DNA of 64,000 bases. It comes from an uncultured Candidatus Sumerlaeota bacterium (GTDB lineage Bacteria; Sumerlaeota; Sumerlaeia; UBA8349). The notes under the pieces were generated by a model. The model was not told the origin of the DNA, did no database searches, and saw only the letters and a program-made list of their open reading frames with translations. The stretch lies in assembly GCA_942493245.1 (NCBI GenBank), contig OW818685.1:4066040-4130039 (forward strand), given 5' to 3'. Positions 22,219 through 62,108 of the stretch are shown here, piece by piece. How positions within the stretch are numbered: the first letter of the stretch is position 1; every line of letters begins with the position of its first letter. Position numbers and translations under genes: made by a program.

Positions 22219-22278
22219 GGGGGGAGGCCTCAATTGAGAATGGATAATGGATAATTGACAATGAACTGATGGGTGGTG

Positions 22279-22343
22279 CCGTTGCGTTGTTTTGTGTTGC
22301 GCAGCGTAGTTGCGTGGCGCGTCGCGTCGAGAAGCGCTGCGAG
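22279..22343 (-). ncRNA. Pentamer array D: 13 x NN-CRC units, candidate guide-like RNA
   Basis: + strand has G every 5 nt from 22284 to 22339; preceded (minus strand) by TGATTTTTC, ends AACGCAACGGCACCACCCA; RNA status is inferred. Confidence 0.55.
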
Positions 22344-22349
22344 GAAAAA

Positions 22350-22853
22350 TCAGTCGGTGATGGCTTTTTGGGTCATTTGGGCCGCGAGGGCGGACCAGTC
22401 GTTGTTTGCGGCGACTCGGGTTTCGAGTTTGCGCCGACTGCTTTCCTCGGTGAGGTGCGCGACGGCGCCCAGGAGGGCCAGGGTGGTGTTGTGCTGGATT
22501 TTGTCGGCGTTGTCGAGGTCGTCGTATTGGGCGCAGAGGATTTTGGCGATGCCGCGTCGGCAGGCGCGCCGGGTTTTTTTGATGGTGGCGTCTCCGGTTT
22601 TGAGGATGTCGCGGTTCTGGAGGCGCTTGTAGCCGATGGTGCGGACGCAGGCGAAGACGGCGCGATCCTCGCAGAGAACGGTGTGGAGGGCGGAGCGCAG
22701 GAGATGGGCGGCGTCGTGGCGGGTGTCGCGGTCGATGAGGCGTGAAAGTTCTTCGTGGGTGACGGTTTCTCCGGGCTGGGCCTGTCGAAGGCGGTCGGCC
22801 AGGATGAGGGTGAGGTGGGACTTTTCTGGGAGGGACTTGAGTTCGGGGGTCAT
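22350..22853 (-). CDS. Hypothetical winged-helix-like protein, partner of RAMP-like gene
   Basis: ATG 22853 with AAAGG upstream; ETVTHEELSRLI helix and VRTIGYKRL wing-like motif; 167 aa. Confidence 0.7.
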   Translation of the reverse strand: MTPELKSLPEKSHLTLILADRLRQAQPGETVTHEELSRLIDRDTRHDAAHLLRSALHTVLCEDRAVFACVRTIGYKRLQNRDILKTGDATIKKTRRACRRGIAKILCAQYDDLDNADKIQHNTTLALLGAVAHLTEESSRRKLETRVAANNDWSALAAQMTQKAITD

Positions 22854-22874
22854 GGTTTCAGCCTTTCTGGGGTG

Positions 22875-22934: not shown

Positions 22935-22979
22935 GGAAAATCTGGATCGCGCAAAGGCGCGAAGGCGCAAAGGAACGAA

Positions 22980-23059: not shown

Positions 23060-23095
23060 GAGAAATCTTTTGCATGGGCCTGTCCTTGGGTGTTG

Positions 23096-24787: not shown

Positions 24788-24863
24788 TTTGAGGGATTTC
24801 CTTTCGGTGGGGTACGTTTTTTTCTCACGCTAAGGCGCGAAGGCGCAAAGAACTGCATAGGAC

Positions 24864-26477
24864 TTATGGGACGGATGGGACCGATGGGACGGGTTCGAGA
24901 GCCTGGCCTTTTTGGATGACGGTGACGGATTCCGATGGGGTGGCGTCGGGGTCGACGAGGGTGAGGATGAGTTGGAGGTTGAGTTCGTCGGCGATCTGAC
25001 GCAGGGTTTGGCGGTTGTCGGGGTCGAGGGATTCGCCGTTGTCGATGAGGACGAATCCGCAGGCGGGGGCGAGGGTGGCGGCGATGGCGACGCCGACTTT
25101 GATCTGCTCGGAGTTGCTGAGGCAGTGGAGGGGTTTACCGTTGATGGCGATGTGCTCGGGCTGGATTTCGAGGCCGGGAATGGGGAGGTTCGCGGCGGCG
25201 AGGAGTTGTTTGGGGAGGGTGTCGCGGAAGAGGGTGACGAGGCCGGTGTAGAGGTCGCTGAGGCGCTTGGCTTCGGTGTGGGCGGCGTGGGCGCGGTCGT
25301 AGGCGTCCTGGGCGCGGCGGTTGTTGAGGTCGCGTTCGGTCTGGTCGAGTTGGGCGGCGAGAGAGGGGAGATCCACGGGCGAGACGCCCGTGCCACTTTG
25401 GGCAGCGTCGGCTTTGAGGGCGTCGAGTTCGGCTTGCTGGGCGTCGCGCTGTTCGTGGGTCTGGAGGAGGAGCCGGATGTCGTTGAGGGAGGTCTGGGCC
25501 TGGGCGCGGTTGTTGATGGCTTCGGTGTGGAGGCGCTGGATTCTGTCGAGTTCGTTGCGGAGTCGGTCTATCTCGATGGTGAGGGTCTGGAGGGAGGCAA
25601 TGGTGGTGTCGAGGTGGGACTGGAGTTCGTCGCGGGTGTAGGGGGGCTTGGTTTCGGCGATCTGGCGTTCGAGGGTTTCGATGCGGGCGGCTCGGGCGGC
25701 GTTGGCGTTGGCGTTTGTGTCGGCCTGGGCCTTGGCGGCGTAGTAGTCGTTGCGGGCGAGGGAGAGGAAGCGTTCGAGGTCGTCGAGGGGGATGTCGGGG
25801 GGCGCGGCGGTGGGGGGTGGGGTGTTTTCGAGGGTGAGGCGGGCCTGTTGGGCGGCGGCGTTTTTCTCCTGGCGGGCGTCGTAGATGAGGTCGTGGAGTT
25901 CTCGGCAGACTTCGATGGCGTGCTGGTCGAGGTTGACGCGGGAGAGGTCTTCGCCCAGGGCGGAGACGACCTGAATGTGATCGGGTCCGAGATCGGCGAC
26001 GGCTTGTTCGATTTCGGCTCGGGTGACAACGAGGGGGAGCGCCTCGATGAGCATGGAGCGCTGTTTGCGCAGGCGGTCCTTGAGGCCGCGCGAGTCTCCA
26101 CCGCCGAGTTTGGCGAAACCAATGGGGTCGAAGGTGATGGCGTTGACGATGGCCCGGAGTACGTCTTTGGCCTTGGCGACGGGGAATCCGTTGGCGTCGG
26201 TGACCATGAGGGTTTCGCTGCCGTTGGCGTGGGCGCGGCGGACGATGTAGTTGGAGAGGTTGAGGATGATTTCGGCGGAGTCTTCTCCGTTGCGGACGAG
26301 TTCGGGGTCGAGTCCCTGGAAGCAGGCGCGGATGGAGTCGAAGGAGGCTGTTTTGCCTTGTCCGTTGGCTCCGGCGATGGTGTGCTCGCGCTGGTCAAAA
26401 TTGATATGGATCTGGCGCAGGGATTTGATGTTGCTGGCCTGGAGGCTGAGGAGGCGGGTGGGGGTGGTGGTGGGCAT
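24864..26477 (-). CDS. SMC/Rad50-like AAA ATPase with coiled coil
   Basis: GANGQGKT Walker A, LSNSEQ signature, VLIDNGESLD Walker B/D-loop. Confidence 0.85.
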   Translation of the reverse strand: MPTTTPTRLLSLQASNIKSLRQIHINFDQREHTIAGANGQGKTASFDSIRACFQGLDPELVRNGEDSAEIILNLSNYIVRRAHANGSETLMVTDANGFPVAKAKDVLRAIVNAITFDPIGFAKLGGGDSRGLKDRLRKQRSMLIEALPLVVTRAEIEQAVADLGPDHIQVVSALGEDLSRVNLDQHAIEVCRELHDLIYDARQEKNAAAQQARLTLENTPPPTAAPPDIPLDDLERFLSLARNDYYAAKAQADTNANANAARAARIETLERQIAETKPPYTRDELQSHLDTTIASLQTLTIEIDRLRNELDRIQRLHTEAINNRAQAQTSLNDIRLLLQTHEQRDAQQAELDALKADAAQSGTGVSPVDLPSLAAQLDQTERDLNNRRAQDAYDRAHAAHTEAKRLSDLYTGLVTLFRDTLPKQLLAAANLPIPGLEIQPEHIAINGKPLHCLSNSEQIKVGVAIAATLAPACGFVLIDNGESLDPDNRQTLRQIADELNLQLILTLVDPDATPSESVTVIQKGQALEPVPSVPSVP

Positions 26478-26599
26478 TTTGGGGGCCTTTCTGGGAACCG
26501 ATTTTGTTTCACGCGAAGGCGCGAAGACGCAAAGGACTGCAAACTGCAACCGATTAACCGCATGGAACCACGGAAAACCGAGGAATACACGGAAACCGA

Positions 26600-27241: not shown

Positions 27242-27300
27242 GGGGTTGATTTCCTTTCATTTTTTTTCTCACGCGGAGGCGCGGAGACGCGGAGAACTGC

Positions 27301-28185: not shown

Positions 28186-28243
28186 GGTGTGGGTTTCCTT
28201 TCTTTTTTGAACCACGGAAAACACGGAATACACGGAAACTGCG

Positions 28244-28993
28244 TCAGGCGGTTGGGGGGTCGGGGGTGATTTCTTCGGCGATGTGGTTGCCGTCTTTTTC
28301 CCAGTGTTTGACGCCGAACTGCTCGTCTGGCTGGAGGATGAGGGGGACGGTGGGGTTGCCGGTGGTGGCGGTGAGGATCTGGTCGATTTTGGCTTTGTTG
28401 GCGGGGGTGAGGCGCGGGAGGGCGGCGACGGTCTGGGTGAGTTTTTCGGCGTTGTTGCGGAAGGGGGCGGCGGTGATGCTGTCGCCTTCGGGGGTCTGGC
28501 AGAGGAATTCGATGGTGAGGGCGCCGTTGTATTTTTTGAGGGTGACGACGAGGACGCGGGCGGTTTTGGTTTCGCGGGGCGCGCCAAAGGACTTGGAGGG
28601 GAATTCGGAGCGGACCTGGGCGTGGGGATCGAGGGACAGGAGGTAGTTTTTGAGGGTGGCGGGGTTGGTGTTGCCGGAGAAGCGGAGTTGCATGAGGGCG
28701 CCGCCGATGACGGCGTCGAGGGAGATGGATTCGAGTTTGGGGGTGGGACTCATGGGCGAGACGCCCATGCCACTTCCGGCGGGGTTCATGGGCGAGACGC
28801 CCATGCCACTGTCCGGGGTGGGGTTGAAATGGGGCGCAGGAGCGAAACTGGCGGGGCTGGTGGCGCGTTCGGGGGAGGGCGCGGGTGTCGGGGCGTTGGC
28901 GGGGGTCTGGGGGTTTGTGGGGGCGGCGTTGGATTGGGCGGAGAAGAGGGCGCCGAGGGTGTTGGGACCGAGTTGGGTGTTAAGGGGGGGCAT
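28244..28993 (-). CDS. Hypothetical phage protein with two in-frame REP copies
   Basis: ATG 28993; Pro-rich N-terminus with SGMGVSPM twice, globular C-terminal half. Confidence 0.7.
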   Translation of the reverse strand: MPPLNTQLGPNTLGALFSAQSNAAPTNPQTPANAPTPAPSPERATSPASFAPAPHFNPTPDSGMGVSPMNPAGSGMGVSPMSPTPKLESISLDAVIGGALMQLRFSGNTNPATLKNYLLSLDPHAQVRSEFPSKSFGAPRETKTARVLVVTLKKYNGALTIEFLCQTPEGDSITAAPFRNNAEKLTQTVAALPRLTPANKAKIDQILTATTGNPTVPLILQPDEQFGVKHWEKDGNHIAEEITPDPPTA

Positions 28994-29095
28994 GGTGTGT
29001 GGGCCTTTCTGGGGGGTTTTTATTTCACGCAAAGGCGCGAAGTCGCAAAGCACCGCGGGGAAACCACGGAAGACACGGAATACACGGAAACTGTG

Positions 29096-30375: not shown

Positions 30376-30770
30376 TGGGGTGGCTCCTGGGACGTATGGG
30401 ACGTAGGGGACACAGAGGACGCGGTGAGGCGTTGTTTGTGCCGGAGGTTGCGTTGTCGGGCGATGATGAGGTCGGCCTGGTCGTAGGTGAGGTGGGCGAG
30501 GTCGGGGACTTTGTAGGCGGTGAGGACGGCCTGGAGATCGGTGCCGGTGGTGGCGATGAGGAGTTCGATGCGTTCGATCTGGTGCGAGGTGCTGGGGACG
30601 GGCTGGCCTTCGAGTGCGGCTCGGTTGTAGATTTCGACGCGGGTGACGGCGTCGTGGAGGTAGGCGTGCTGGAGTGTCCAGGCGGGTGTGTCGCGATGGG
30701 CGGCGATGAGGTCTTTGGCCTCGATGAGGAGTTCGTTGAGGTGGTAGAGGGCGACGGCTGGGTCGATCAT
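30372..30770 (-). CDS. Hypothetical phage protein
   Basis: Overlaps neighbours by 4 nt at both ends. Confidence 0.65.
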   Translation of the reverse strand: MIDPAVALYHLNELLIEAKDLIAAHRDTPAWTLQHAYLHDAVTRVEIYNRAALEGQPVPSTSHQIERIELLIATTGTDLQAVLTAYKVPDLAHLTYDQADLIIARQRNLRHKQRLTASSVSPTSHTSQEPPQ

Positions 30771-31060
30771 TTTGGGGCGCCTTCGGTGGTTGGTTGTGTC
30801 TCACGCGGAGACGCGGAGGCGCGGGGAACCGATACCGATGGCTCACGCAAAGGCGCGGAGGCGCAAAGGAGGGTGTTGGCTTCTTCGCAGAGGTTGAGGA
30901 GTACGTTTTTGGTCTGGAAGACAATGGTGCGGGGGGTGCCGTTTTTGGGGTCGGCGTCGTGCATGTAGAGGAGCGCGGCGCGGGTGAGGCGGTTGAGGAG
31001 GTCGAGGGTGCGCTGGGTCTTGCGGGCGTCGTGGCAGCGGTAAACGGGTGTGTCAGGCAT
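30767..31060 (-). CDS. Hypothetical phage protein with repeat-derived C-terminus
   Basis: Coupled start/stop; last third encoded by spacer-type repeats 30800-30870. Confidence 0.55.
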   Translation of the reverse strand: MPDTPVYRCHDARKTQRTLDLLNRLTRAALLYMHDADPKNGTPRTIVFQTKNVLLNLCEEANTLLCASAPLREPSVSVPRASASPRETQPTTEGAPK

Positions 31061-31226: not shown

Positions 31227-31410
31227 GATCGGTCTCCTGGTCGGATTTCGGCTCGTGGTTGTTGCATGGAGAGAACGGGTCGAGGACTATGATGTCTTTC
31301 TGTGCGCAAGGGAAGAAAAGGCCGGAATTTTCCGGTTTGTGTCGGCACAGAAGGCACGAGTTCGGATACTCGCGTTCAATTTCTTGTTTTTCTTCGGGGG
31401 TCAGTGACAT
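31219..31410 (-). CDS. Small Cys-rich protein (63 aa)
   Basis: CLLC...C...C..H pattern; coupled to neighbours. Confidence 0.6.
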   Translation of the reverse strand: MSLTPEEKQEIEREYPNSCLLCRHKPENSGLFFPCAQKDIIVLDPFSPCNNHEPKSDQETDHD

Positions 31411-32102
31411 GGGAAATTCTCCTGTTCGGATTCGCCGTCGGGGTAGTAGGTTTCGGTGTAGTCGAGGGCGAGTTGGAGTTGGGTGTGGCTGGGGGGTCGG
31501 GGGTTGAATGCGGCGTGGAGGAAGCGGCCGATTTTATGGAAAAAAGGAACCAGGAGGGCGCGCAGGGATGAGGCTTTGAGGGCGTAGTAGAGTTGGTGGA
31601 GGAGGGGCGCCTGGCGTCCGGAGGTGAGGGTGGACAGGGGGTGGGTTGGGATGTTGTGAACGGGGATGGAGGCGGAGAAGGGATTACGAATTACGAATTG
31701 ATCTGGTTCGCGCAAAGGCGCAGAGTCGCCAAGGGACGCAAGGGAGTTGAATCCGGCAGAGGTGGCGCAAAGGGGAATTTGGCATGCGTCGGCTGCGGAG
31801 AGATAGGTCAAAAATGGGTGGAAGAGGGCATCGCTGCCGGTTGGGGTTGAGAGCAGTATGGGGGGGACTGGTTCGTGAGAGAGGGCAAACCAGGTAGTCT
31901 GGAGGAGGTCGAGGATTCGGGCGGCTGAGGCGTGGGAGATGTCGTCGCCCTGGCCGTTGATGATGCGGGCGATGGTGGAGTAGGCGAGTTTGGCTTTTTC
32001 GTGGAGATCGTTGTGGGTGAGTCTGAGTTCGTGGAGGCGTCGGGCGATGTTGGCGGCGACGATGGGGGTGATGGTTTTGCCGGTGGTGTGGTAGATGCCC
32101 AT
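31401..32102 (-). CDS. XRE-family HTH protein (early regulator)
   Basis: LTHNDLHEKAKLAYSTIARIING. Confidence 0.7.
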   Translation of the reverse strand: MGIYHTTGKTITPIVAANIARRLHELRLTHNDLHEKAKLAYSTIARIINGQGDDISHASAARILDLLQTTWFALSHEPVPPILLSTPTGSDALFHPFLTYLSAADACQIPLCATSAGFNSLASLGDSAPLREPDQFVIRNPFSASIPVHNIPTHPLSTLTSGRQAPLLHQLYYALKASSLRALLVPFFHKIGRFLHAAFNPRPPSHTQLQLALDYTETYYPDGESEQENFPCH

Positions 32103-32262
32103 GTGGGTGTCCTCCTGGGGGGTTTGGTTTGGGGGGAGGCCGTCAGTCTCCCCCCTGCTGAGTTTTCCGTGGCATGTCCCTATCCAAAACTTAAGGAGCA
32201 TGTGACCCGCGCCGAAGGCTAACGGGCTTGACGGCGGTTTTTGCCTTTGACAAGCGTGTGGG

Positions 32263-32529
32263 TTAGGTGGTGGTGGGGTCGATAGGCGGATCTCCTGGGA
32301 TGGGGGTTTGGGGGTCAACCGATGGGGACTTTTGTCCCTGGCGCTCGGCAATGAGGGTTTCAAGGGCGGTTTGGATCTTAAAGAAAGTCTGGATTCCGGG
32401 ATTCTGAACACGCCCGCTTTCGATTGCGTGGATCGTTGTTTTGGGTACTCCAGATGTGATTGCGATTTTTTCCAACGTTATTTTGGGCTGTACGGAGTTG
32501 CGTTTTAACAGCATTTCAAGAGCGTTCAT
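32263..32529 (-). CDS. Cro-like XRE HTH regulator
   Basis: ITLEKIAITSGVPKTTIHAIESG; divergent from repressor. Confidence 0.8.
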   Translation of the reverse strand: MNALEMLLKRNSVQPKITLEKIAITSGVPKTTIHAIESGRVQNPGIQTFFKIQTALETLIAERQGQKSPSVDPQTPIPGDPPIDPTTT

Positions 32530-32558
32530 GGTGTCCCCTTTCGCGTGCAACGAGGGCT

Positions 32559-32586
32559 ATAGTACGAAATATCGAACCGATGTCAA
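32559..32586 (-). promoter_or_regulatory. Leftward lytic promoter with overlapping operator
   Basis: TTGACA-N16-TACTAT; imperfect palindrome GTACGAAATATCGAAC 32562-32577 in spacer. Confidence 0.55.
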
Positions 32587-32655
32587 GAGGAAAAGTACGA
32601 GATTCGGAAAAAAATAATATTGCGCCGATGCGGGAAGTTTACTATTTTGTACTTT

Positions 32656-33324
32656 ATGAATGAAATCAACGCTCTGTATCACACGCTGATTTTAAAACTG
32701 ATGGAGGACCGAAAGATTCCTCCCAAGGAAGTTTATTTGTCGGCGGATGTAAAGAAGGTCACGTTTTATAACTTCATTAACGGTGAAAACAGCATATCTG
32801 TGGAGCGTTTTGGGCGTATTTGTGCGGCTTTAGGGTTGGATCTTGAGGGTTTTCTGAAAAGTGGCGGAGAGTTGCCTTGTGTGGATGAAAAGGGTTCTGC
32901 TCCTATCCCTTGTTTCGGGAGTGTTGAGGCGGGTCGTACAAATGGATTTGTGGATATAGAGATTACGAAAGACTCTCTGAAGGATGTGCCAAAGGTTTCA
33001 GCCTCGCGGGAACGGCTGAAAAAGGGTCTTCGGGGTGGGTCGTTGCTGGATGTGGTGGCGTTGACTGTCAGGGGGGACAGTATGGAGCCGTTGTTCCAGG
33101 AGGATGACGTAGTGTTTGTGCATCAGAATGAAACCCTGAAGGATTTACGGCATCGGGATATTGTCGTGATGGATTTGGATGGTTTGGGGTCGTACACAAT
33201 AAAGCAGTGGCATAAGGAAGGGTTATTGGTGGCCTTGAATCCGAAGCATGACGCGATTGTGCTGAAGAAGTGTCCGGGGTGGCGTCTGTTTGGGCGTGTG
33301 ATTGGGATGGATAGGGTTTATTGA
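32656..33324 (+). CDS. CI-like repressor, HTH + S24 (LexA-type) peptidase
   Basis: N-terminal HTH, VEAG cleavage site, VRGDSMEP serine, TIKQ lysine. Confidence 0.9.
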   Translation: MNEINALYHTLILKLMEDRKIPPKEVYLSADVKKVTFYNFINGENSISVERFGRICAALGLDLEGFLKSGGELPCVDEKGSAPIPCFGSVEAGRTNGFVDIEITKDSLKDVPKVSASRERLKKGLRGGSLLDVVALTVRGDSMEPLFQEDDVVFVHQNETLKDLRHRDIVVMDLDGLGSYTIKQWHKEGLLVALNPKHDAIVLKKCPGWRLFGRVIGMDRVY

Positions 33325-33353
33325 GTTTCAATCTGAGGAAAAGGGGGTTTATC

Positions 33354-33905
33354 ATGGCTTTGATCGAGTGTCCGGATTGCAAGGAGCAGGTGTCGAGTGA
33401 TGCGCCTTCCTGCCCAAAGTGCGGGAAACCGATGCCGGGAAAGAAAAGTCCGCCAGCGATGTCGTTGGTTGGGAAGATTGGCACAACGATTTTGATGATT
33501 TTTCTTTGTCTGCTGGGGCTTGGGATGTGCAAGGATGCCATCACTCCAGACGCGAAACCGAAAGCCGATGTGGCTTCAGCGGATAAAAAACCGACTCCAA
33601 CGCCTCGCCCGGAAGTGATTCTGAAGCCAAATGTCCGATATATGCTGGGTAATATCACAGTGACGAATGAGAATGATTTTGACTGGACGGACGTGGAGTT
33701 GGAGTTGAATAGCGGGACGTTTTCGAGTGGGTATAAACTCAACGTTCCTGTGATTCCAGCGAGAGGAAGCGCGGCGTATTTGGTTACTCAGTTTTGCAAA
33801 AGCGATGGGCTGAAGTTTAACCCGCAAGCGTTCAAGCCGGTGAAGATGTCGATTGACTGCAAGACGAAAAATGGGGATGGGTTCACTGTGGTGGGCTGGC
33901 AGTGA
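33354..33905 (+). CDS. Zinc-ribbon + TM + periplasmic domain protein (lysogeny accessory)
   Basis: CPDC..VSSDAPSCPKCG, hydrophobic segment ILMIFLCLLGLG. Confidence 0.8.
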   Translation: MALIECPDCKEQVSSDAPSCPKCGKPMPGKKSPPAMSLVGKIGTTILMIFLCLLGLGMCKDAITPDAKPKADVASADKKPTPTPRPEVILKPNVRYMLGNITVTNENDFDWTDVELELNSGTFSSGYKLNVPVIPARGSAAYLVTQFCKSDGLKFNPQAFKPVKMSIDCKTKNGDGFTVVGWQ

Positions 33906-33955
33906 TTTTTTGTTTTCAACGTGGAAGGGGTGGATTCTGATCTGGAGGGGTGGCG

Positions 33956-34777
33956 ATGTCGCGCTTTTTCTCGGTTTTCGTTGTGGTGTTTGTCTTGCTG
34001 TGCCCGGCTGGGTTTGCAGAGGAATTCAAGGGGAAGTGCGTGGGGGTGACGGACGGGGATACGATTTCGGTGATGCGCGAGGGGAAGGCGGAGAAGGTGC
34101 GGTTGTATGGGATCGACTGCCCGGAGGTGGGCCAGCCGTTCGCGACGAAGGCGAAGCAGGCGACTTCGGATTATGTGTTTGGGAAAGAGGTGACGGTTAA
34201 GAGTGCGGGGAAGGATCGGTATGGGCGAACGATTGGGGTGGTGTTGCTGCCGAACGGGTCGGGTTTGAATGTGGCGCTGGTGAATGGTGGTCTGGCGTGG
34301 CATTACAAGGCTTACTCGAAGGAGAAGGCGCTGGCGGATTACGAGGTGAAGGCTCGGGAGGCGAAGCGGGGGGTGTGGTCGCAGGATTCGCCGGTTGCGC
34401 CGTGGGATTTTCGGAAGGATCGGAAGCGGGATCATGATGATTTGAGTGTGGGATCTGGTCTTGTGGCGGAGGCTGAGGCCACGACGGCGTCTGTGCGGGT
34501 TGAGGAGGAGGAAAAAGGGGCTGTCCCGGGGGCGCATGTGGAGGAGTCGGTTGTGAGGGCGGCTCCGGTTCGGGCTGCGGCAGGGGTGCAAAAAAGGGGT
34601 TATGCCGGGCGGCAGGCTGTGCCGATGGCGGGCGGGGATCGGACTGTTTATTTGTCTCAGGAGGGGAATAAATATCATCGTTTTGGGTGTGGGACGTTGA
34701 AAAAGACGCCTATTGCTGTTCCTTTGAGTCAGGCTATTCGGGCGGGAAGAGGGGCTTGTGGCGTTTGTAAGCCGTAG
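33956..34777 (+). CDS. Secreted thermonuclease (SNase) with C-terminal Ada-type metal-binding domain
   Basis: Signal peptide; VTDGDTI, VRLYGIDCPE, DRYGRTIG, GLAWHY; KYHRFGC..ACGVCKP. Confidence 0.9.
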   Translation: MSRFFSVFVVVFVLLCPAGFAEEFKGKCVGVTDGDTISVMREGKAEKVRLYGIDCPEVGQPFATKAKQATSDYVFGKEVTVKSAGKDRYGRTIGVVLLPNGSGLNVALVNGGLAWHYKAYSKEKALADYEVKAREAKRGVWSQDSPVAPWDFRKDRKRDHDDLSVGSGLVAEAEATTASVRVEEEEKGAVPGAHVEESVVRAAPVRAAAGVQKRGYAGRQAVPMAGGDRTVYLSQEGNKYHRFGCGTLKKTPIAVPLSQAIRAGRGACGVCKP

Positions 34778-34803
34778 AGTTTGAGGAAGAGGTGAAGAGG
34801 CAA

Positions 34804-34840
34804 GCCGCTCGGGTTTTGTGTCTGGGCGGTTCTTTTTTTT
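34804..34840 (+). terminator. Intrinsic terminator ending cI-moron transcript
   Basis: GCCGCTCGG/CTGGGCGGT stem then T-run. Confidence 0.7.
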
Positions 34841-34850
34841 GTGCGGGGGG

Positions 34851-34880
34851 TTGACAAAGTAAGCGACTTCGCTTATGAGT
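34851..34880 (+). promoter_or_regulatory. Candidate late promoter with palindromic operator
   Basis: TTGACA 34851-56; TAAGCG-actt-CGCTTA 34860-75; weak -10 TATGAG. Confidence 0.45.
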
Positions 34881-35095
34881 GTACTTGCCCTTGACAAGCA
34901 CGTGACCATTCGGTCGCGCAAACGTGCTTCTCAGGGGCTTTTTCTTTATGGGTTCTCCCATCGTATCTTTATCCACACCATGTGTTTCCTCTACTAAATC
35001 AGAGGTGCCCACCGGCCTGCTGACCATCAGGCTATTGTCCCGCCTTAACCCGAAAAAGCCCCTGGGATCACTGTTTGTGCGTGGGGGTGGCTGAT

Positions 35096-35470
35096 ATGCC
35101 GATGCGGCCCAGACGAGCGTGTGAATATGTGGGCTGTCACTCTCTGGCTGTGGAGGGGCGGCGGCGTTGTGCTGAGCATCATGTGCAGAGCAAGAAGGAG
35201 TACTACCGCGAGGTGGCTGCTGTGCGGGGCACGACGAAGGAGCGTGGATATGCTGGGGCGTGGCCTCATGTGAGGCGGATGAAATTGTCTCTGAATGCGT
35301 GGTGCGAATGGGTGGGCTGTGAGGAGCAGGCTGTTGAAGTACATCACAAAACAAAGATCCGGGGCGGGGGGACGCATGAGATGAGCAATCTGGTTTCGTT
35401 GTGCGTGTGCCATCACCATGAGGTTGAAAATACGGGGGTGTTGATGCTTGATCCGTCCTCTGAGGCATAG
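35096..35470 (+). CDS. Terminase-associated HNH endonuclease
   Basis: RGY...W, WCEWVGC..AVEVHH..GGTHEMSNLVSLCVCHH. Confidence 0.9.
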   Translation: MPMRPRRACEYVGCHSLAVEGRRRCAEHHVQSKKEYYREVAAVRGTTKERGYAGAWPHVRRMKLSLNAWCEWVGCEEQAVEVHHKTKIRGGGTHEMSNLVSLCVCHHHEVENTGVLMLDPSSEA

Positions 35471-35700
35471 AGCGCTGTATGTGGTGTGTTGTGGGCTGGC
35501 CGTGGTGGTGGGCGCAGCCTGACGCGGGGGTAGGGGGGTAATTTTGCTCCCGGAAAACCACTGATGACCCAGCCCGCCTACACTAGAGGGAGAATAGATT
35601 TCCTGGGGTTTCTTGTTTTTGGGGTGTGGTTTGGGTGTGGGGTGGGGTGGGGCCGGGGGTGGGTGGATGGCTGAAAATTATGGGGTTTGAGGAGGGTGGA
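35471..35700. other. Probable packaging (cos) region
   Basis: Non-coding G-rich gap between HNH and terS; position typical of HNH/P27-terS cos phages; exact site not identifiable. Confidence 0.3.
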
Positions 35701-36159
35701 ATGAAGGTTTATCCGGGGAAATCGGGGCCGAAATCTGGGAAAAAGGGGGTGGTTTTGGCGGGGAAAGGGCGTCTTTTGGCTCCGAAATACCTGTCGAAAG
35801 CGGCGAAAGCGGAGTGGAAACGGCAGGAGGGACGGTTTGGGGAGTTGGGTTTGACGGACTGCGACCAGGGGTTACTGGTGGCTTATTGCGAGACGTTCGC
35901 GACGCTGATCGAGAGCACGGAGCGCATCCAGAAAGAGGGGCGCTATGGGGTGGATCGGTTCGGGAAGACATACACGCACCCCTGGGCGGCGGCGGCGCTG
36001 CGGGCATCGTCGGAGTTGCGTCAGTTGGCGGAGCGTTTGGGTTTGACGCCTGGATCGCGGGCAAAATTACCGGCCAAGCCGGAGGCTGCTGAGAAGGGGC
36101 CGGACGCGAAGGCTCGGGCGAAGTTGTTCGGAGGGAAGATCGCTGGGAAAAAAGAGTAG
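35701..36159 (+). CDS. terS: Terminase small subunit, P27 family
   Basis: APKYLSKAAKAEW, AYC, HPW, LGLTPGSRAKL. Confidence 0.9.
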   Translation: MKVYPGKSGPKSGKKGVVLAGKGRLLAPKYLSKAAKAEWKRQEGRFGELGLTDCDQGLLVAYCETFATLIESTERIQKEGRYGVDRFGKTYTHPWAAAALRASSELRQLAERLGLTPGSRAKLPAKPEAAEKGPDAKARAKLFGGKIAGKKE

Positions 36160-36181
36160 TATCCCGACCAAGTCCGAGAAG

Positions 36182-37816: not shown

Positions 37817-37953
37817 TGGATCCGAAGACTCGGATTTTCTGGATGGCGGTGCGGCAGGCGTTACTGGCTTTGCTGGCGGCGCTGGAGTGTTATCTGGGGA
37901 TCGAGCGGAGCCGGGAGGGGCGGAAGGATAAGATGGGGGTGCGGGAGTTGTGA
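37816..37953 (+). CDS. Small hypothetical protein (45 aa), not in ORF track
   Basis: ATG overlaps terL TGA; MDPKTRIFWMAVRQALLALLAALECYLGIERSREGRKDKMGVREL. Confidence 0.5.
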   Translation: MDPKTRIFWMAVRQALLALLAALECYLGIERSREGRKDKMGVREL

Positions 37954-37956
37954 GGA

Positions 37957-38121
37957 AATTGATAATTGACAATGGATAATGGACAATGAACCGCAACCGC
38001 AGGGGACACCACCAAGACACCAAGACACCAAGGAGCGCAAAAACCAAAGGCTCACGCAAAGGCGCGGAGACGCAAAGAACCGCAACCGATTCAACCACGA
38101 AAAACACGAAAAACACGAAAT
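37957..38121 (+). repeat. Composite spacer containing 7-bp, 8-bp (two types) and 9-bp modules
   Basis: AATTGATAATTGACAATGGATAATGGACAATG; CCACCAAGACACCAAGACACCAAG; ACGCAAAGGCGCGGAGACGCAAAG; ACCACGAAAAACACGAAAAACACGAAA. Confidence 0.9.
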
Positions 38122-38244
38122 TGGGTGTTGACAAGGGAGCGGGGTTGGGTGTAGGGGTTTTAATGACAGTGTGATTTGCCCACCGTCGCCCAATATGTGC
38201 GCCAGCGTGAGTTGTCCAGCGGCGCGTGATGACCAGGAGTCGTC

Positions 38245-40397: not shown

Positions 40398-40434
40398 GAA
40401 TACCACGAAAGACACGGAAGAGGAGGAATAGGAA

Positions 40435-42714: not shown

Positions 42715-42806
42715 GGCTCACGCGGAGGCGCGGAGACGCGGAGAACCGCAACCGCGCCAATCGGGAGATTGGCGGTCCCAGGCGGGACGGTCCCAGGGGG
42801 GAAACG

Positions 42807-43420: not shown

Positions 43421-43660
43421 GGAACCGATAACCGCGTCTCACGCAAAGGCGCGAAGACGCAAAAAACCGAAGAACCGCAACCGATCACGGGCGAGACGCC
43501 CATGCCACAACCGCAACCGCAGAGGAACCACGGAAAACTGCGAAATACACGGAAACTGCAACCGATCACGGGCGAGACGCCCGTGCCACAACCACAACCG
43601 ACAGGGAACCACGAAAGACACGAAGGACACGAAAACTGCAACCGATAACCGCAGGGCGAA
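43421..43660 (+). repeat. Largest composite spacer: 8-bp module, two REP copies, two 9-bp modules, AACCGCAACCGAT linkers
   Basis: REP at 43486-43508 and 43567-43589; ACCACGGAA-type and ACCACGAAA-type triplets. Confidence 0.9.
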
Positions 43661-43686
43661 ACTGAAACTGATAGGGGGAAAATGGG

Positions 43687-46319: not shown

Positions 46320-46424
46320 AACCGCGACTCACGCAAAGGCGCAGAGACGCAAAGAACCGCAACCGATTTTTAACCACGAAAAACACGAAAGACACGAAAA
46401 CCGCAAACAATTCAGGGGAACCGC

Positions 46425-46883: not shown

Positions 46884-46944
46884 CCGATGCTCTCGCAAAG
46901 GCGCGAAGACGCAAAGAGACTATAGAGAGAAGGAGGGATGAGGG

Positions 46945-47757: not shown

Positions 47758-47952
47758 TCAATTGATAATGGATAATGGACAATTGACAATGAACCGCGTG
47801 ACACCACCAAGGCACCAAGGCACCAAGGAGTGAGGGAGAGGGTTTGCCGTCCCGGTCGGTTTTTACACGCTGGGAACCGTGGCTGGCCGGGGCGGCAGAA
47901 CTACAATGAATAATTGATAATGGACAATGGATAGCGAACCGCGGAGGACGCC

Positions 47953-48348: not shown

Positions 48349-48458
48349 GGGCGGCTCACGCAAAGGCGCAAAGACGCCAAGGACCGCAACCGATTCAACC
48401 ACGAAAGACACGAAACACACGAAAACCACAACCGCAGAAAACCGAGGAATACACGGAA

Positions 48459-49004
48459 ATGGCTGGATTTAATGTTACGACAGATATGGGCGCCCACATT
48501 TTTCGCGCAGAGATGCGCGAGGTGGCTAAGGAGTCATGTAAGGAGGCTGCGAAACATGTGGCTTCTTCGATTTGGTCTATTTTGCGGGCGGTGCAGGAGA
48601 CGACGAGGTGGTCGCTGGAAGGTGGCTGGGGATGGTGGGCTAAGAGGATCGCCCACGGATTTGTGCGGGAAAGTGTCACCCTGGGCGATTATGCAGGAAA
48701 AAGCGTGGGTGGGTGGCTGCGGTTGAGTCACTTGTATTTCGTGATCGAAGGCGGAACTCGGCAAGGGAAGCGCGGCTGGGCGCGTCGTGGCGGAGAAAAC
48801 TATGGAACGATCCAGGGGAAGCGGCGCGCGCATGAGGTCTACCTGAATAAAGCGCGCCGGGGTCCGTCGAAGGCGCAGCCGTTCCTGCGTCCGGCGGTTG
48901 AGGCGAACGAGGCGCGGATCGCGGAGGCGATAGCCGCGAAGTGGGAGAAGAAAACGATTACCCCTTCCGGCCGGAAGGGTGAATACAAATCCTGGAAGTA
49001 CTGA
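48459..49004 (+). CDS. HK97 gp10-like tail completion protein
   Basis: HLYFVIEGGT, KAQPFLRPAVE. Confidence 0.75.
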   Translation: MAGFNVTTDMGAHIFRAEMREVAKESCKEAAKHVASSIWSILRAVQETTRWSLEGGWGWWAKRIAHGFVRESVTLGDYAGKSVGGWLRLSHLYFVIEGGTRQGKRGWARRGGENYGTIQGKRRAHEVYLNKARRGPSKAQPFLRPAVEANEARIAEAIAAKWEKKTITPSGRKGEYKSWKY

Positions 49005-49075
49005 TGAAGACACGAAAACCGATAGACTCGCGCAAAGGCGCGAAGACGCAAAGGGAAAAGAGAGAGGGAGGGGTT

Positions 49076-49519: not shown

Positions 49520-49804
49520 GCGATGTTCTGGAGACGTTTGTCCTGGGCGAGTGGCATCTGGACGTGAACGTGGTGGTGAACACCTGGACCTGGGATCTGC
49601 TGGAGACGATGGTGGCGGCGCGCATGCGCCGGGCGGAGCGGGAGCGGGAGATGATGGAGGCGGCGAGGGGCGGGGAGTGACCGAGAGTCTCACGCCAAGG
49701 CGCAAAGACGCAAAGAACTGCGAACCGCGACCGATAACCGCAACCGATACACGGGCGAGACGCCCGTGCCACAACCGCAACCGATAACCGCAGGAGAGTG
49801 AGAG

Positions 49805-51607: not shown

Positions 51608-51650
51608 AATTACGAATTGGAAATTACGAATTACGAACTGAGGTCTGAGG

Positions 51651-52475: not shown

Positions 52476-52529
52476 GGGGAATTACGAATTGAGAATTACG
52501 AATTACAAATAGAAGGGGGGGGCGGGGGG

Positions 52530-52820
52530 ATGACGCCGGAGAATGGACAGGGGGGTGAGTCGTTGATCGGGTGGGCGAAGCGGGACATCGACACGCTGTT
52601 TGCGGGGCTGAACGCCGTGCAAATGGAGGTGGCGAAACTCTCCTCGAAGTTCGAAAAGTACGTGCAGCCGTGCAACGATTTTCGGTGTCACCTGGAGGAG
52701 CACGAACGGAGAGAAACCCGGTGGTGGGGTTTCTGGCTGCGGGCGCTGACGCAGTTGGTGACGGCGGCGATTGGGGCGGGGGTGGCTATGGCGGCGAATG
52801 GGAAGTGGCCGGGGCTTTAA
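52530..52820 (+). CDS. Small coiled-coil + C-terminal TM protein (holin-like)
   Basis: Single hydrophobic segment LTQLVTAAIGAGVAMAA. Confidence 0.55.
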   Translation: MTPENGQGGESLIGWAKRDIDTLFAGLNAVQMEVAKLSSKFEKYVQPCNDFRCHLEEHERRETRWWGFWLRALTQLVTAAIGAGVAMAANGKWPGL

Positions 52821-52992
52821 CCGCAACCGATAACCGCGGACTCACGCGGAGACGCGGAGGGGCGGAGAACTGCAACCGATAACCGCTTCTCACGCAAAGG
52901 CGCGAAGACGCAAAGAAACGCCACCGATTTTGACCACGAAAAACACGAAAGACACGAAAACCGCAACTACAACCGATTGATGGGAACCGCAG

Positions 52993-54336: not shown

Positions 54337-54512
54337 GGGAATTGAGAATTGAGAATTACGAATTGAGAATGAACAGCAACCGATAACCGCAGGGTCACGC
54401 GGAGACGCGGAGTTGCGGAGAACTGCAACCGCAACCGATTTTTGACCACGAAACACACTAAAGACACGAAAACCGCAACCGATTGAACCACCAAGGCACC
54501 AAGAACCGCAGG
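54336..54512 (+). repeat. Composite spacer (7-bp, 8-bp, 9-bp, 8-bp modules)
   Basis: AATTGAG x2-AATTACG-AATTGAG; ACGCGGAG x2-TTGCGGAG; ACCACGAAA-type; CCACCAAG-type. Confidence 0.85.
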
Positions 54513-55656: not shown

Positions 55657-55826
55657 CCGATAACCGCCAGGCTCACGCGGAGACGCGGAGGCGCGGAGAA
55701 CTGCACACCGCAACCGATTACCACCAAGGCACCAAGAAACGATTGAGGGGAACCGCAGAACCGCAACCGATTTTGACCACGAAAGACACGAAGGACACGA
55801 AAAGAGCAACCGACAGGGAACCGATT
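55657..55826 (+). repeat. Composite spacer (8-bp, 8-bp, 9-bp modules with linkers)
   Basis: CTCACGCGGAGACGCGGAGGCGCGGAG; CCACCAAGGCACCAAG; ACCACGAAAGACACGAAGGACACGAAA. Confidence 0.85.
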
Positions 55827-60308: not shown

Positions 60309-60424
60309 GGGAACCGCAACCGATAACCGCGGACTCACGCGGAGGCGCGGAGGCACGGAGAACCGCAACCGATAGGCTCACGCGAAGGCGCGAAGACGCA
60401 AAGAACCGACAGGAGGGGTGATAG

Positions 60425-62047
60425 ATGGGCGACGTGACGGTGCAGCATAACGATGTGGGGGTGGAGTTGACTCGGGCGGAGTTTACTTCGCCTTCAACGC
60501 ACGCGGTGGTGGTGGCGGGCGCGGCGGCTCGGGATTTGATCCAGGCGAAGGCGGACGGGAAGCTCGAGTCGGTGAACACGCCGAGCGTGCAGAAGATCAA
60601 GGTGGGCGGCGCGGCGGGAACGCCGACGAACGAGATTGACCTGGCGGCGGGTCGGCTGGAGGCGGCGGCGGGAACGGTGTGCTGCGCTCGGGGGCAGGTG
60701 ATCGGGGGGCTGGGCGAGGCGGGAAAGGGTGCGCTCGAGTTTTTGCACGCGCTCCTCGATGAGCAGAGCGGTGCGGCGATTGCGGACCGGACGGGGCACT
60801 GGCCGGGGGCGCTGTCGGGGACGCTGGGTTATACGGCGAGCGGCTTGCCGTCGGGATTGGCGAGCGCGCTGGTGCTGGACGGGGCGACGAATGCGGTGGA
60901 CTTCGGGCGGATGGACTTCTCGACGTGGCAGGAGTTGAGCGTGTCGCTGTGGGTGAAGATTGCGGCGGACGCGGCGGATGCGTCGCATGCTCTGATCGGG
61001 AACAACACGTTCAATTGCACGGATGGGTGGTCAATTTTCTGGGTGGGAACGGGGGGGACAGACCGTCGTTTGTTCGCGTACCACAACGGGGTCGGACTTG
61101 GAACAGGCGCTGGGAACACTTTCACAAAGGACGCCTGGCATCACATCGTTTTTACGATTCGCCGGGACGCCGGGTTGTCTTTGGTTGTGGATGGGGTTGT
61201 TTATCCGCCGGTTTCTGGCGCGTCGTCCTATTCGCTCAACACGGCCTACAGCACAAAGTTGGGGGTGAGGGCGACTTCGAGCGGGTATTGGGCGAAAGCG
61301 TCGGTGGCGGGTCTGCGGATTTACAACCGGGCGCTGTCGCTGGATGAGGCGCTGGCGCTCTATGCCGGTGGAGCGGGGCGGAAGGAGCCGTTTGTGCCAG
61401 CGGTGGGCGGTCTGCTCGATGCGTGGCAGATGGTGGCTCCGGGTTTGTTTTCGGGGACCGCGGTCAACACTTACCAGGTGACGTGTTCAGACCCGAGGGT
61501 GGCGCCTGGGGTGCCGTTGCGGATTATAGTGGGGTCGGTGGCCTATTACTATATGGCGCTGGCGGTGTCGGGTTCGACGGTGACGGTGGCGGGTCCGGCT
61601 CTTTCGACGACCGCCGGGGCGATTCGGGGGATTGCGATTCGTCCGCCGAGCGCGGTGGTGGTGGAGCGTTTCCCGCAGCCGGGGAGTTACGCGAGCGGGC
61701 GGAGCGCGGGGGATGTGCTGGAGTCGCGGGTGTGGCGTCGGGGGGCTGCGGCGCTGGTGGCGCTGACGGCGAAGCACGGCACGAACGACACGGGGGCGGT
61801 GCAGCCGTATGTGAATCTGAAGATCGGCGGGAACGCGGTTTCGACGATGAACACGAATCAGGGGCCGTCTATGTCGAGCGCGGCGTGGACGCCGGATCTG
61901 GCGACGGGGAGCACTCTTCTGGGGGCGATCAATGCCGCGAATTACAGCGTGGCTCTCAATGGGGTGATCGACCTGGTCTTGACGGTGACGGGGAGCAATA
62001 AGGACGCGGTGGGGCTGCTGGTGGATTCGATCTGGGTGCTGAAGTGA
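60425..62047 (+). CDS. Tail fibre/receptor-binding protein with LamG-like jellyroll domain
   Basis: ALVLDGATNAVD, SVSLWVK, WHHIVFT, LRIYNRALSLDE. Confidence 0.82.
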   Translation: MGDVTVQHNDVGVELTRAEFTSPSTHAVVVAGAAARDLIQAKADGKLESVNTPSVQKIKVGGAAGTPTNEIDLAAGRLEAAAGTVCCARGQVIGGLGEAGKGALEFLHALLDEQSGAAIADRTGHWPGALSGTLGYTASGLPSGLASALVLDGATNAVDFGRMDFSTWQELSVSLWVKIAADAADASHALIGNNTFNCTDGWSIFWVGTGGTDRRLFAYHNGVGLGTGAGNTFTKDAWHHIVFTIRRDAGLSLVVDGVVYPPVSGASSYSLNTAYSTKLGVRATSSGYWAKASVAGLRIYNRALSLDEALALYAGGAGRKEPFVPAVGGLLDAWQMVAPGLFSGTAVNTYQVTCSDPRVAPGVPLRIIVGSVAYYYMALAVSGSTVTVAGPALSTTAGAIRGIAIRPPSAVVVERFPQPGSYASGRSAGDVLESRVWRRGAAALVALTAKHGTNDTGAVQPYVNLKIGGNAVSTMNTNQGPSMSSAAWTPDLATGSTLLGAINAANYSVALNGVIDLVLTVTGSNKDAVGLLVDSIWVLK

Positions 62048-62108
62048 GGAACTGAAAGAAACCACCAAGACACCAAGGCACAAAGAACCGAAACAGAGGG
62101 AGGGGGGA

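Follow-up and report, generated by a model that had tools for sequence, protein, structure and literature searches.

Intergenic tandem-repeat cassettes of a Sumerlaeota prophage keep to one DNA strand in oppositely transcribed operons

Introduction

Why would the intergenic repeats of a phage all lie on the same DNA strand when its genes are read in both directions? The question is raised by a prophage of ~43 kb within a window of 64,000 nucleotides (nt) (the whole stretch of DNA analyzed) from an uncultured Candidatus Sumerlaeota bacterium (assembly GCA_942493245.1, contig OW818685.1, positions 4,066,040 to 4,130,039). Cassettes of short tandem repeats stand between most of its genes, and two oppositely transcribed operons share one extreme compositional bias and carry their cassettes on a single strand, such that transcription and DNA strand are separated in a natural experiment.

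Intergenic tandem repeats with units of 7 to 9 nt, including STRR (the short tandemly repeated intergenic heptamers of cyanobacteria), long simple sequence repeats (LSSR), and the TAACTGA and GGGNATC repeats, have been known for decades, but there is no agreed mechanism for them. Proposals to date invoke functions in RNA or as binding sites of regulators (PMC4679880, PMC2700814) or the formation of non-B DNA (PMC4692102). The pattern in the prophage points to a cause at the level of DNA or replication, not of RNA, for this widespread class of repeats.

All cassettes of the prophage lie on one strand

The prophage contains ~31 blocks assembled from six unit types (A to F) and a hairpin that resembles repetitive extragenic palindromic (REP) elements. 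The tandem arrays have periods of 7, 8, and 9 nt and contain 2 to 5 copies. Unit A, a triple 8-mer, is a discrete element of ~33 nt, CTCAC-(GCRRAGRC)x3-AAC, whose consensus is CTCAC-GCAAAG-GC-GCGAAG-AC-GCAAAG-AACYGC; its ends (CTCAC...AACYGC) are conserved, and it has two main alleles, GCAAAG/GCGAAG and GCGGAG. The other units are CACCAAGR x3 (B), CACGRAANN x3 (C), ATGGGACNN x3 (D), AATKGAB x4-5 (E), and linkers of AACCGC or AACCGAT (F).

When up to 3 mismatches are allowed, the triple 8-mer CGCRRAGRCGCRRAGRCGCRRAG has 25 matches, every one on the + strand, against 0.08 expected from shuffled sequences, and the triple 9-mer CACGRAANN x3 has 14, again all on the + strand, against 0.03 expected by chance. 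A regular-expression census of arrays of at least two units recovered 73 on the + strand (A, 25; F, 21; C, 11; E, 9; B, 5; D, 2), none on the - strand of the prophage, and none on either strand of the host flank (positions 1 to 20377). An inverted-repeat search of the 43-kb prophage returned only pairs at chance level and no module-sized reverse copies. Tandem arrays of 7 to 9 nt reach a density of 0.95/kb in the prophage, compared with 0.05/kb in the host flank and a median of 0.05/kb in phages with related portal proteins.

A preliminary description of this DNA had reported cassettes at 30 loci, all on the + strand in both operons, and A/C-rich in a G/T-rich background. Each of the 30 loci carries the units described, the 73-to-0 census bears out the polarity, and the base composition of the modules (A,.376; C,.267; G,.271; T,.086) contrasts as stated with that of the prophage overall (A,.178; C,.207; G,.406; T,.209). 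Its claim that the whole prophage is punctuated was too broad, since the segment from the CI-like repressor to TerL (32.2 to 37.9 kb) is module-free, with cassettes in 0 of 6 gaps. Its view of the modules as spacers applies to most copies, with several exceptions: one lies in the 3' end of the portal gene (39579-39605), one within an open reading frame (ORF) (31689-31733), and two overlap the 3' ends of genes (24866-24892 and 30388-30411).

Position follows genes, whereas orientation follows the DNA strand

Gene strands were assigned from the GC1/GC2/GC3 pattern of ORFs and then confirmed by Pfam/PHROG family matches, which place the switch between leftward and rightward genes at ~32.2 to 32.6 kb, not at 37.9 kb. 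Of the 30 gaps in the two operons, 26 contain cassettes (left arm, 9 of 11; right arm, 17 of 19), at a median spacing of ~870 nt. In both arms, modules begin 0 to 9 nt from the stop codon of the transcriptionally upstream gene, and leave uncovered only a stretch for ribosome binding (11 to 22 nt in the right arm; 27 to 39 nt, including a T/A run, in the left), indicating that the position of modules follows gene structure but that their orientation does not.

The composition of the prophage is strongly asymmetric between strands. On the + strand, GC skew ranges from +0.19 to +0.43 in the prophage and from -0.04 to -0.23 in the host flank, and third-codon-position skew has the same sign in leftward genes (GC, +0.76; AT, -0.57) and rightward genes (GC, +0.53; AT, -0.52), as opposed to a GC skew of -0.21 to -0.35 in host genes. 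Cumulative skew climbs monotonically over the prophage, and its sign is constant along the 43 kb. Together with the equal sign in both arms, this indicates a strand-specific bias without an internal switch. Because the same strand is G/T-rich in both arms and the host flank has the opposite bias, the asymmetry follows the DNA strand and neither transcription nor the local bias of the host. The polarity also fails to follow the host strand here, the G-rich strand of the prophage being the C-rich strand of the flank.

In bacteria and in mitochondrial DNA, depletion of C and A on one strand marks deamination during the time that this strand spends single-stranded. The skew of the prophage thus probably reflects single-strand exposure of its G/T-rich strand, and the constancy of its sign would imply that the phage replicates in one direction.

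Since the modules are rich in A and C, the very bases that are scarce at near-neutral positions of the + strand, the reverse orientation would be mutationally more stable than the one observed, and an active bias or selection is needed to account for the latter. Erasure of reverse copies by mutation bias was rejected for the same reason: a reverse arm exposes fewer A and C residues. Among departures from the module consensus, A>G and C>T changes prevail (89, versus 23 in the reverse direction), which agrees with decay under the strand bias, although the polarization of these changes is insecure because the GCGGAG allele exists elsewhere.

In strongly skewed phages, unpaired arrays of the same units favor the G-rich strand

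The units of the prophage are widespread. The A triple was found in at least 120 IMG/VR contigs (G+C content of 0.45 to 0.74) and at least 120 metagenome contigs, the C triple in at least 119 viral contigs, the D triple in at least 115, and the B triple in 19. Many viral contigs hold different units in almost every gap (e.g., L026, L034, L053, and L109). Across viral and metagenome contigs, about half of the copies form inverted pairs able to fold into long hairpins; paired A modules of metagenome contigs lie in 21 gaps between convergent genes but in only 2 between divergent genes, a placement typical of 3'-end elements such as REPs. The units therefore constitute a shared vocabulary, and strand polarity is not built into them: the reported lack of reverse copies applies to this genome without being inherent in the units.

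The relationship between orientation and skew was evaluated in 256 viral loci with G+C content of at least 0.5. The set comprises 124 lineages, defined by sequence similarity, and 476 intergenic module instances, each of which was classified by the direction of its flanking genes and by local GC skew with modules masked. The rule rests on viral loci, as local skew is below 0.1 in nearly all metagenome contigs. The pattern AGAACYGCAACCGAT is too short and yielded chance matches in viral contigs. At an absolute skew of at least 0.15, unpaired arrays lie on the G-rich strand in 32 lineages and on the C-rich strand in 3. Where genes are on the G-rich strand, arrays fit both a strand rule and a transcription rule in 22 lineages, versus 2. 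In the informative cases, with genes on the C-rich strand, arrays obey the strand rule in 6 lineages and the transcription rule in 1 (19 instances to 1). With the left arm of this phage, the informative count is 7 to 1 lineages, which is suggestive but not significant alone.

The gene caller made 1 error in 49 calls on the window, and the gene strands of informative lineages were checked by homology (PHROG): TerL, portal, and capsid in L365/L382; TerL and portal in L427, L046, and L031; and protease and capsid in L340. In L046, L031, and L427, which are unrelated lineages, a cassette antisense to the genes there occupies the gap between TerL and portal, the site of the largest block of the prophage (37957-38122). 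Packaging direction was rejected as the cause of polarity: relative to the terminase, portal, and capsid genes, modules are sense in this prophage and antisense in L365, L046, L031, L340, and L427. Also rejected was the idea that inverted pairs belong to weakly skewed contigs and single arms to strongly skewed ones; the paired fraction is 0.39 to 0.57 in every skew bin (Spearman coefficient over lineages, -0.03).

No close relative of the phage was present in the collections searched, and GenBank phages gave no match. Portal relatives in IMG/VR are at most 43% identical and are module-free except for L148 (IMGVR_UViG_3300033062_001943), a distant relative (portal 37% identical; G+C content, 0.61; GC skew, 0.38). 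All units of the window are absent from L148, yet nearly every gap contains purine-rich heptamer arrays (TAGGGGA, AGGGATG, CAAGGGG, and GATAAAG), which keep to the G-rich strand without exception and in many cases extend into the start codon. In a large protein collection, the top match to the portal (52% identical) is on satellite-like elements that carry no modules, and neither the capsid nor the integrase protein clusters with any other at 90% identity. A 20-nt junction of A and F had 13 matches in genome contigs, approximately the number expected by chance and all in unrelated contexts.

The nearest portal homologues (47 to 52% identical; L334, L335, and L336) belong to small clusters with a DUF5906 primase-like gene, TerS, protease/capsid, and portal genes and no tail genes, which look like phage satellites. 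The protease and capsid genes are fused in L334 and L335 but are separate ORFs in L336.

Predicted effects on RNA differ between the two operons

Taken alone, + strand blocks fold less than their neighbors (mean z, +1.8; - strand, -0.7). When folded with 150-nt flanks, modules in the rightward mRNA sense have an unpaired probability of 0.50, versus 0.40 in the flanks, but in the leftward sense 0.45, versus 0.63, so that the two operons would see opposite structural effects. The hypothesis that modules are unstructured spacers in all mRNAs was rejected on these grounds, as modules in leftward mRNA are more paired than their flanks. A search of the window against Rfam 15 passed tRNA-Leu alone, with modules unmatched at E values of up to 1. 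Features of intrinsic terminators are absent: the modules are T-poor single arms without an inverted partner, and + strand blocks fold weakly. The earlier argument against an RNA terminator is therefore upheld, single arms forming no hairpin-plus-U structure.

The cassettes might nevertheless act in RNA as intercistronic spacers, their shared strand being incidental. Such a role would suit their placement exactly between stop codon (0 to 9 nt) and ribosome-binding site (RBS) in both arms, the Shine-Dalgarno-like purine cores (GGAG, AAGG, GAAAG, and GGGA) of most units, and the accessibility of modules in rightward mRNA; precedents are found in TAACTGA repeats just upstream of start codons (PMC4679880) and in the purine-rich heptamer arrays of L148 directly before start codons. 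We consider it quite improbable, because leftward mRNA carries the reverse complement, with modules there less open than the sequence around them, because at least five other homology-verified lineages have cassettes antisense to their TerL, portal, or capsid genes, and because the predicted dependence of orientation on transcription is absent where the two can be separated, in 6 lineages to 1 plus this phage.

The core inference of the preliminary description, that the DNA strand, and not transcription, determines polarity, thus receives support from several directions: modules share one strand in - and + operons, third-codon skew marks that strand in both arms, the accessibility of modules in RNA is opposite in the two arms, and other lineages obey the G-rich-strand rule even where this places modules antisense to TerL, portal, and capsid genes. 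An association of cassette orientation with the replication-asymmetric DNA strand is the best-supported conclusion.

Cassettes are gained, lost, and copied locally

Whole cassettes, as well as units within them, turn over. At one orthologous gap of phages that are 88 to 92% identical, the filler is an A-module hairpin of ~200 nt in L075, a stretch of 43 nt in L023, and an unrelated hairpin in L027. Contigs of L363-L442, at 94 to 100% identity, keep the positions of arrays but differ by whole units (9 and 18 nt), and in one case by the presence or absence of a second, inverted arm. Within the prophage, C variants are more alike when closer together (Mantel r = 0.65, P = 0.0002), and AATTACG and GCGGAG variants cluster in neighboring gaps between tail genes, but A alleles are scattered without relation to proximity (Mantel r = 0.03). 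An 81-bp unit composed of linker, hairpin, linker, and C array is tandemly duplicated at 43468-43646 (2.2 copies, 86% match), indicating that whole composite blocks can duplicate locally. Three processes are thus visible, namely, gain or loss of whole cassettes, slippage of units, and local copying.

Local copying raises the possibility that homology within the genome drives the spread, through ectopic gene conversion or through template switching, with gaps that have linkers in common as the partners. Orientation would always be kept, and reverse copies would be removed as inverted repeats harmful in a replicon with long single-stranded intermediates. This would accord with the exclusive presence of direct repeats (there is no inverted module pair in 43 kb), with the clustering of C, AATTACG, and GCGGAG variants, with the 81-bp duplication, and with the common AACCGCAACCGAT linkers, which could seed pairing. 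It predicts, however, that each genome adopts an arbitrary strand, and the 32-to-3 preference of lineages for the G-rich strand counts against it as the sole cause; moreover, A-type alleles are unclustered, and the model would not account for how seven element types came into both arms, all with one orientation, in the first place. We judge this explanation to be rather unlikely.

Turnover at gene boundaries also bears on whether the cassettes are recombination joints, i.e., shared boundary sequences for in-register swaps of modules between related phages. They are located at nearly every gene boundary, their vocabulary recurs in unrelated phages, and related phages differ in what fills an orthologous gap. 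But the one comparison available (L075/L023/L027) shows an exchange of gap filler and no gene swap, arrays of L363-L442 are conserved together with their genes, and collinear exchange needs neither a uniform strand within a genome nor a link to skew, all of which makes a function as joints very improbable.

A REP-like hairpin is shared with the host

A seventh recurrent element, missing from the preliminary description, is a 23-nt hairpin, CAYGGGCGAGACGCCCRTG+CCAC, with an 8-bp stem and a 3-nt loop. The window contains 11 copies (9 in the prophage and 2 in the host flank), of which 10 have CCAC at the 3' end (GTGG 5' of the hairpin on the opposite strand). All nine copies in the prophage are same-strand singlets in + orientation; four are within module blocks, and five are in frame inside leftward genes. 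In contrast, the host intergenic gap at 2700-3082 contains an inverted doublet, with hairpin+CCAC at 2980(-) and 3060(+), ~60 bp apart, resembling a REPIN (REP doublet forming a hairpin). The occurrence of hairpin+CCAC in this gap and in the prophage indicates an element common to host and phage, and the hairpin was also matched in 6 viral contigs (IMG/VR).

In-frame hairpins add peptides to their proteins (e.g., GMGVSPM and GTGVSPVYP), reminiscent of palindromic elements that insert harmlessly into genes. The host gap also holds a 38-bp repeat with a hairpin of its own (GCCGGCGTCCCCGCCGGC, 2.7 copies). Neither the cassette units nor the REP-like hairpin contain a stop codon on either strand, so that they extend or create spurious ORFs, a practical matter for annotation.

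Setting of the prophage

The prophage is inserted at a tRNA-Leu gene between 61-bp direct repeats (Table 1), and the host flank (positions 1 to 20377) carries housekeeping genes (IlvD, ThiE, ThiG, and others); at 90% identity or more, its ThiG groups with proteins labeled Candidatus Sumerlaeota. Early genes on the - strand encode the integrase, a protein with a DnaA_N-like domain, an AAA/SbcC-like ATPase, a pyrophosphatase, a PolB-exo-like exonuclease, and a Cro-like helix-turn-helix (HTH) protein. On the + strand, from 32656, are a CI/S24 repressor, a zinc-ribbon protein, an SNase-like nuclease, HNH, TerS, and TerL, followed by portal, protease, major capsid protein, tape measure, tail proteins, and a GH108 endolysin.

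Two regions depart from the general pattern. The segment from the CI-like repressor to TerL (window positions 32000-37900) is lower in G+C content (0.505 at 32 to 34 kb), and its gaps are empty of cassettes even though its skew is as strong as elsewhere; it may be a more recent acquisition or be organized differently. The gene for a right-handed beta-helix protein (43997-45085), among the head and tail genes, has a GC3 of 0.53, compared with ~0.8 in its neighbors, and abuts both of them without a cassette. The atypical codons and cassette-free joints suggest a recent insertion.

Signals of other kinds were also noted. Palindromic boxes of the CTTGACAAG/CTTGTCAAG type lie near attL (20553-20580), upstream of the HNH gene (34850-34900), and near attR (63203-63227) and could be operator or promoter elements unconnected with the cassettes. 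Leftward genes have a common leader (24788-24826, 27242-27270, 28188-28212, and 28996-29026) that reads, on the - strand, as an A run, then GAAAGGAAA or GAAAGGCCC, 10 to 15 nt, and ATG. Rightward genes have GGAGG-type sites in its place, and translation-initiation signals thus appear to differ between the two operons.

Table 1. Features of the prophage and its borders (window coordinates; A to F are cassette units as defined in the text)
Feature	Coordinates	Strand	Context
Prophage (~43 kb)	20378-63503		Between 61-bp att direct repeats, at tRNA-Leu
attL, 61-bp direct repeat	20378-20438		Identical to 63443-63503
Tyrosine integrase	20608-21798	-	Adjoins attL
Two REP-like hairpins (CACGGGCGAGACGCCCGTG+CCAC)	21967-22046	+	In frame inside leftward coding sequence 21847-22218
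E (7-mers AATTGAG/AATGGAT x5)	22232-22266	+	Left arm, upstream of leftward gene 21847-22218
A (triple 8-mer)	22949-22972	+	Left arm
A + D (ATGGGACNN x3)	24827-24892	+	Left arm; D overlaps 3' end of AAA/SbcC-like gene
REP-like hairpin	25374-25396	+	Inside AAA/SbcC-like coding sequence
A-F-C	26511-26595	+	Left arm
A-F (GCGGAG allele)	27271-27300	+	Left arm; abuts exonuclease gene stop codon
C (CACGGAA variant x3)	28213-28239	+	Left arm
Two REP-like hairpins	28751-28809	+	Inside coding sequence 28244-28993; peptide GMGVSPM x2
A-C	29027-29091	+	Left arm
D-like array (TGGGACGTA x2.7)	30388-30411	+	Left arm, gene 3' end
A-F-A	30803-30868	+	Left arm
E-A	31689-31733	+	Left arm; inside Cro-like HTH protein ORF (31401-32201, - strand)
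E-F-B-A-F-C, largest composite	37957-38122	+	Between TerL and portal
C triple	39579-39605	+	Inside 3' end of portal ORF
C x2	40404-40421	+	Between protease and major capsid gene
D x2 (ATAGGACNN)	42374-42391	+	
E x4, hairpin, A-F, A-F	42534-42755	+	
F-A-F-hairpin-F-C-hairpin-F-C-F	43423-43672	+	Contains 81-bp tandem duplication 43468-43646
F-A-F-C-F	46320-46424	+	Fills entire stop-to-start gap
A triple	46893-46916	+	
E x5-B x3, then second E x4	47760-47932	+	
A-F-C-F-C	48358-48460	+	
C (single)-A triple	49017-49053	+	
A-F-hairpin-F	49692-49791	+	Upstream of tape-measure gene
E (AATTACG variant)	51608-51635	+	
E (AATTACG/AATTGAG) x5	52480-52514	+	
F-A-F-A-F-C-F	52819-52975	+	
E-F-A-F-C-F-B	54340-54504	+	
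F-A-F-B-F-C-F	55657-55826	+	Fills entire gap
F-A-F-A-F	60312-60408	+	
F-B x3	62050-62086	+	Upstream of endolysin gene
attR, 61-bp direct repeat	63443-63503		3' part of tRNA-Leu(aag)
tRNA-Leu(aag)	63444-63530	-	

Discussion

What could tie the orientation of so many unrelated units to one strand? We tentatively favor, as a possibility to be held lightly, that the cassettes are miniature extragenic repeat elements that spread by single-strand-specific insertion or copying at the replication fork. A vocabulary common to many environmental bacteria and phages would have been placed, in this prophage, between stop codon and RBS. The G/T-rich strand would be the one left single-stranded in one-directional phage replication, whether as lagging-strand template or as displaced strand. 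If the insertion or copying step handles one strand only, at the single-stranded part of the fork, just one cassette strand could end up in the exposed strand. Selection would retain insertions in stop-to-RBS gaps, plus a few in frame within genes, and arrays would then gain or lose whole units by slippage. The cassettes would accordingly be mobile and not merely selected in place.

A mechanism at the fork is favored because it explains the uniform polarity, the same choice of strand across independent lineages, and a composition opposed to the mutation bias, as well as the turnover, the in-frame copies, and the shared REP-like hairpin. It also has precedents. IS608 and ISDra2 excise from and insert into the lagging-strand template, resulting in an orientation bias relative to replication (PMC5027513), and REPs, which are similar to the terminal hairpins of IS200/IS605, are substrates of Y1 HUH enzymes (PMC3333891, PMC3116915).

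Several observations weigh against insertion at the fork. Family searches of the 64-kb window found no transposase, RAYT (REP-associated tyrosine transposase), or HUH genes; the tandem cassettes lack the hairpin required by every known Y1/HUH substrate; and no target-site signature was seen at cassette ends. The inverted pairs that make up about half of the copies elsewhere, at every level of skew, are not predicted by an insertion model, and the exact fit to stop-to-RBS gaps could reflect function instead of a filter on insertions. The whole-unit differences among L363-L442 indicate slippage and not transposition, the similarity of neighboring C variants fits local copying, and the 6-to-1 lineage count that separates strand from transcription is small and not significant alone. 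In its more specific form, in which the cassettes are a miniature element without hairpins, or a cis site, of a kind not described so far and processed in single-stranded form at the fork, the proposal is doubtful.

The exposed strand could instead be where the cassettes are read, as cis sites serving as Okazaki start zones or as loading zones for single-stranded-DNA-binding protein (SSB), helicase, or recombination proteins, in the manner of multiple single-strand origins. Strict polarity on the strand inferred to be single-stranded, the median spacing of ~870 nt, the weak folding of + strand blocks (z, +1.8), and the G-rich-strand rule across lineages would all be in keeping with such sites, and an A/C-rich makeup kept against mutation bias is expected if they are covered early or selected. 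However, there are at least six unrelated unit sequences, whereas a primase or loader reads one motif; the segment from 32.2 to 37.9 kb is cassette-free; the spacing merely tracks gene length; and the same units form inverted pairs at gene 3' ends elsewhere. Known single-strand origins are structured hairpins, which the cassettes are not, and accessibility in context is only slightly raised (0.40 to 0.50, versus 0.37 to 0.40). Sites of this kind seem unlikely.

Polar sites of known types in double-stranded DNA, whether Chi-like, KOPS-like (FtsK-orienting polar sequences), stoperator-like, or strand-specific nicking sites, are the least credible of the explanations weighed here. The 8-mers are on the G-rich strand, as are Chi and KOPS, and the phage encodes an SbcC-like ATPase and an exonuclease. 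But each known system has one strict motif, whereas here there are many unrelated units with variable positions (GCAAAG, GCGAAG, GCGGAG, and GCCAAG among the variants); stoperators are oriented by transcription; the polarity in the lysogen is opposite to the local skew of the host, and thus wrong for host KOPS; and the same units occur in both orientations elsewhere. Purely RNA-level roles, packaging direction, and known polar sites all fit poorly.

Were the cassettes such a hairpin-free element or cis site, processed in single-stranded form at the fork, their orientation would show which strand, in a phage or a chromosome, lies exposed as it replicates, and STRR-like intergenic repeats scattered over many bacterial phyla would stem from one replication-coupled process. 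If the strand rule is borne out, orientation could also help to mark the direction in which uncultured phages replicate.

Comparison with known repeat systems

Among the systems closest to the cassettes are the STRR, LSSR, and TAACTGA repeats, a class with units of 5 to 11 nt. The "long simple sequence repeats" of Mrazek et al. 2007, as far as they are summarized in PMC4679880, and the TAACTGA repeats of Beggiatoaceae, Cyanobacteria, and Bacteroidetes (PMC4679880) likewise consist of 2 to 6 tandem units of 7 to 9 nt, are almost all intergenic, and have arrays interrupted by related units. Both they and the cassettes have a scattered phylogenetic distribution, suggesting horizontal transfer; for the cassettes, variation in unit number was observed in the related contigs of L363-L442. 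TAACTGA sets are, however, oriented by transcription, toward the downstream start codon, which the cassettes of the prophage ignore. The prophage further differs in concatenating several unit families and linkers into composite blocks, and in doing so in a phage at nearly every gene boundary.

The G-quadruplex-forming heptamers GGGNATC and GGGGAYT of Xanthomonas and Nostoc also form intergenic arrays between co-oriented ORFs, and where they stand relative to neighboring ORFs is likewise fixed with reference to the repeat strand itself, independent of ORF direction, but they show no preference for leading or lagging strand (PMC4692102), whereas the units of the prophage are A-rich, lack G-tracts, and lie on the G-rich strand of skewed replicons. 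Multicopy sites of Geobacter metallireducens, proposed to bind global regulators, consist of four tandem octanucleotides (GTTGCTYN) or five heptanucleotides, mostly in opposite-strand pairs (PMC2700814). Their ~30-nt sites of tandem 7- to 8-nt units, and their pairing, recall the A module, which is paired in about half of the viral and metagenome contigs; the unit sequences differ, and replicon-wide use of a single strand is not described for them.

Among mobile elements, the REP, BIME (bacterial interspersed mosaic element), and REPIN families with RAYT (PMC3116915, PMC3333891) are approached by the hairpin CAYGGGCGAGACGCCCRTG with its flanking tetranucleotide (GTGG on the complementary strand), by the inverted doublet in the host flank, and by paired A modules at gene 3' ends (21 convergent versus 2 divergent gaps). 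The tandem cassettes are, in contrast, non-palindromic, the 64-kb window yielded no RAYT gene, and the phage hairpins are all one-strand singlets, five of them in frame inside genes. The "peel and paste" transposition of IS200/IS605 elements shares an orientation bias with respect to replication direction (PMC5027513), expressed here as 73 arrays to 0 and 32 lineages to 3, but those elements span 0.6 to 2 kb or more, with subterminal hairpins and tnpA, whereas the units here are 20 to 35 nt and mostly hairpin-less.

Other systems resemble the cassettes in distribution. As in the prophage, many short asymmetric sites with a strong orientation bias are dispersed through a temperate phage genome, mostly in short intergenic gaps, in the case of the stoperators of cluster A mycobacteriophages; these are a single 13-bp repressor site oriented with transcription in each arm, whereas six tandem-repeat families here occupy one DNA strand in oppositely transcribed arms. 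The strand bias of Chi and KOPS is present in the cassettes, but the single strict motif of those sites is replaced by many motifs at variable positions. A literature search found no phage described as punctuated gene by gene with one-strand cassettes and no description of a G-rich-strand rule. The kind of sequence is thus known, whereas its replicon-wide, transcription-independent polarity and the link of that polarity to extreme skew appear to be new.

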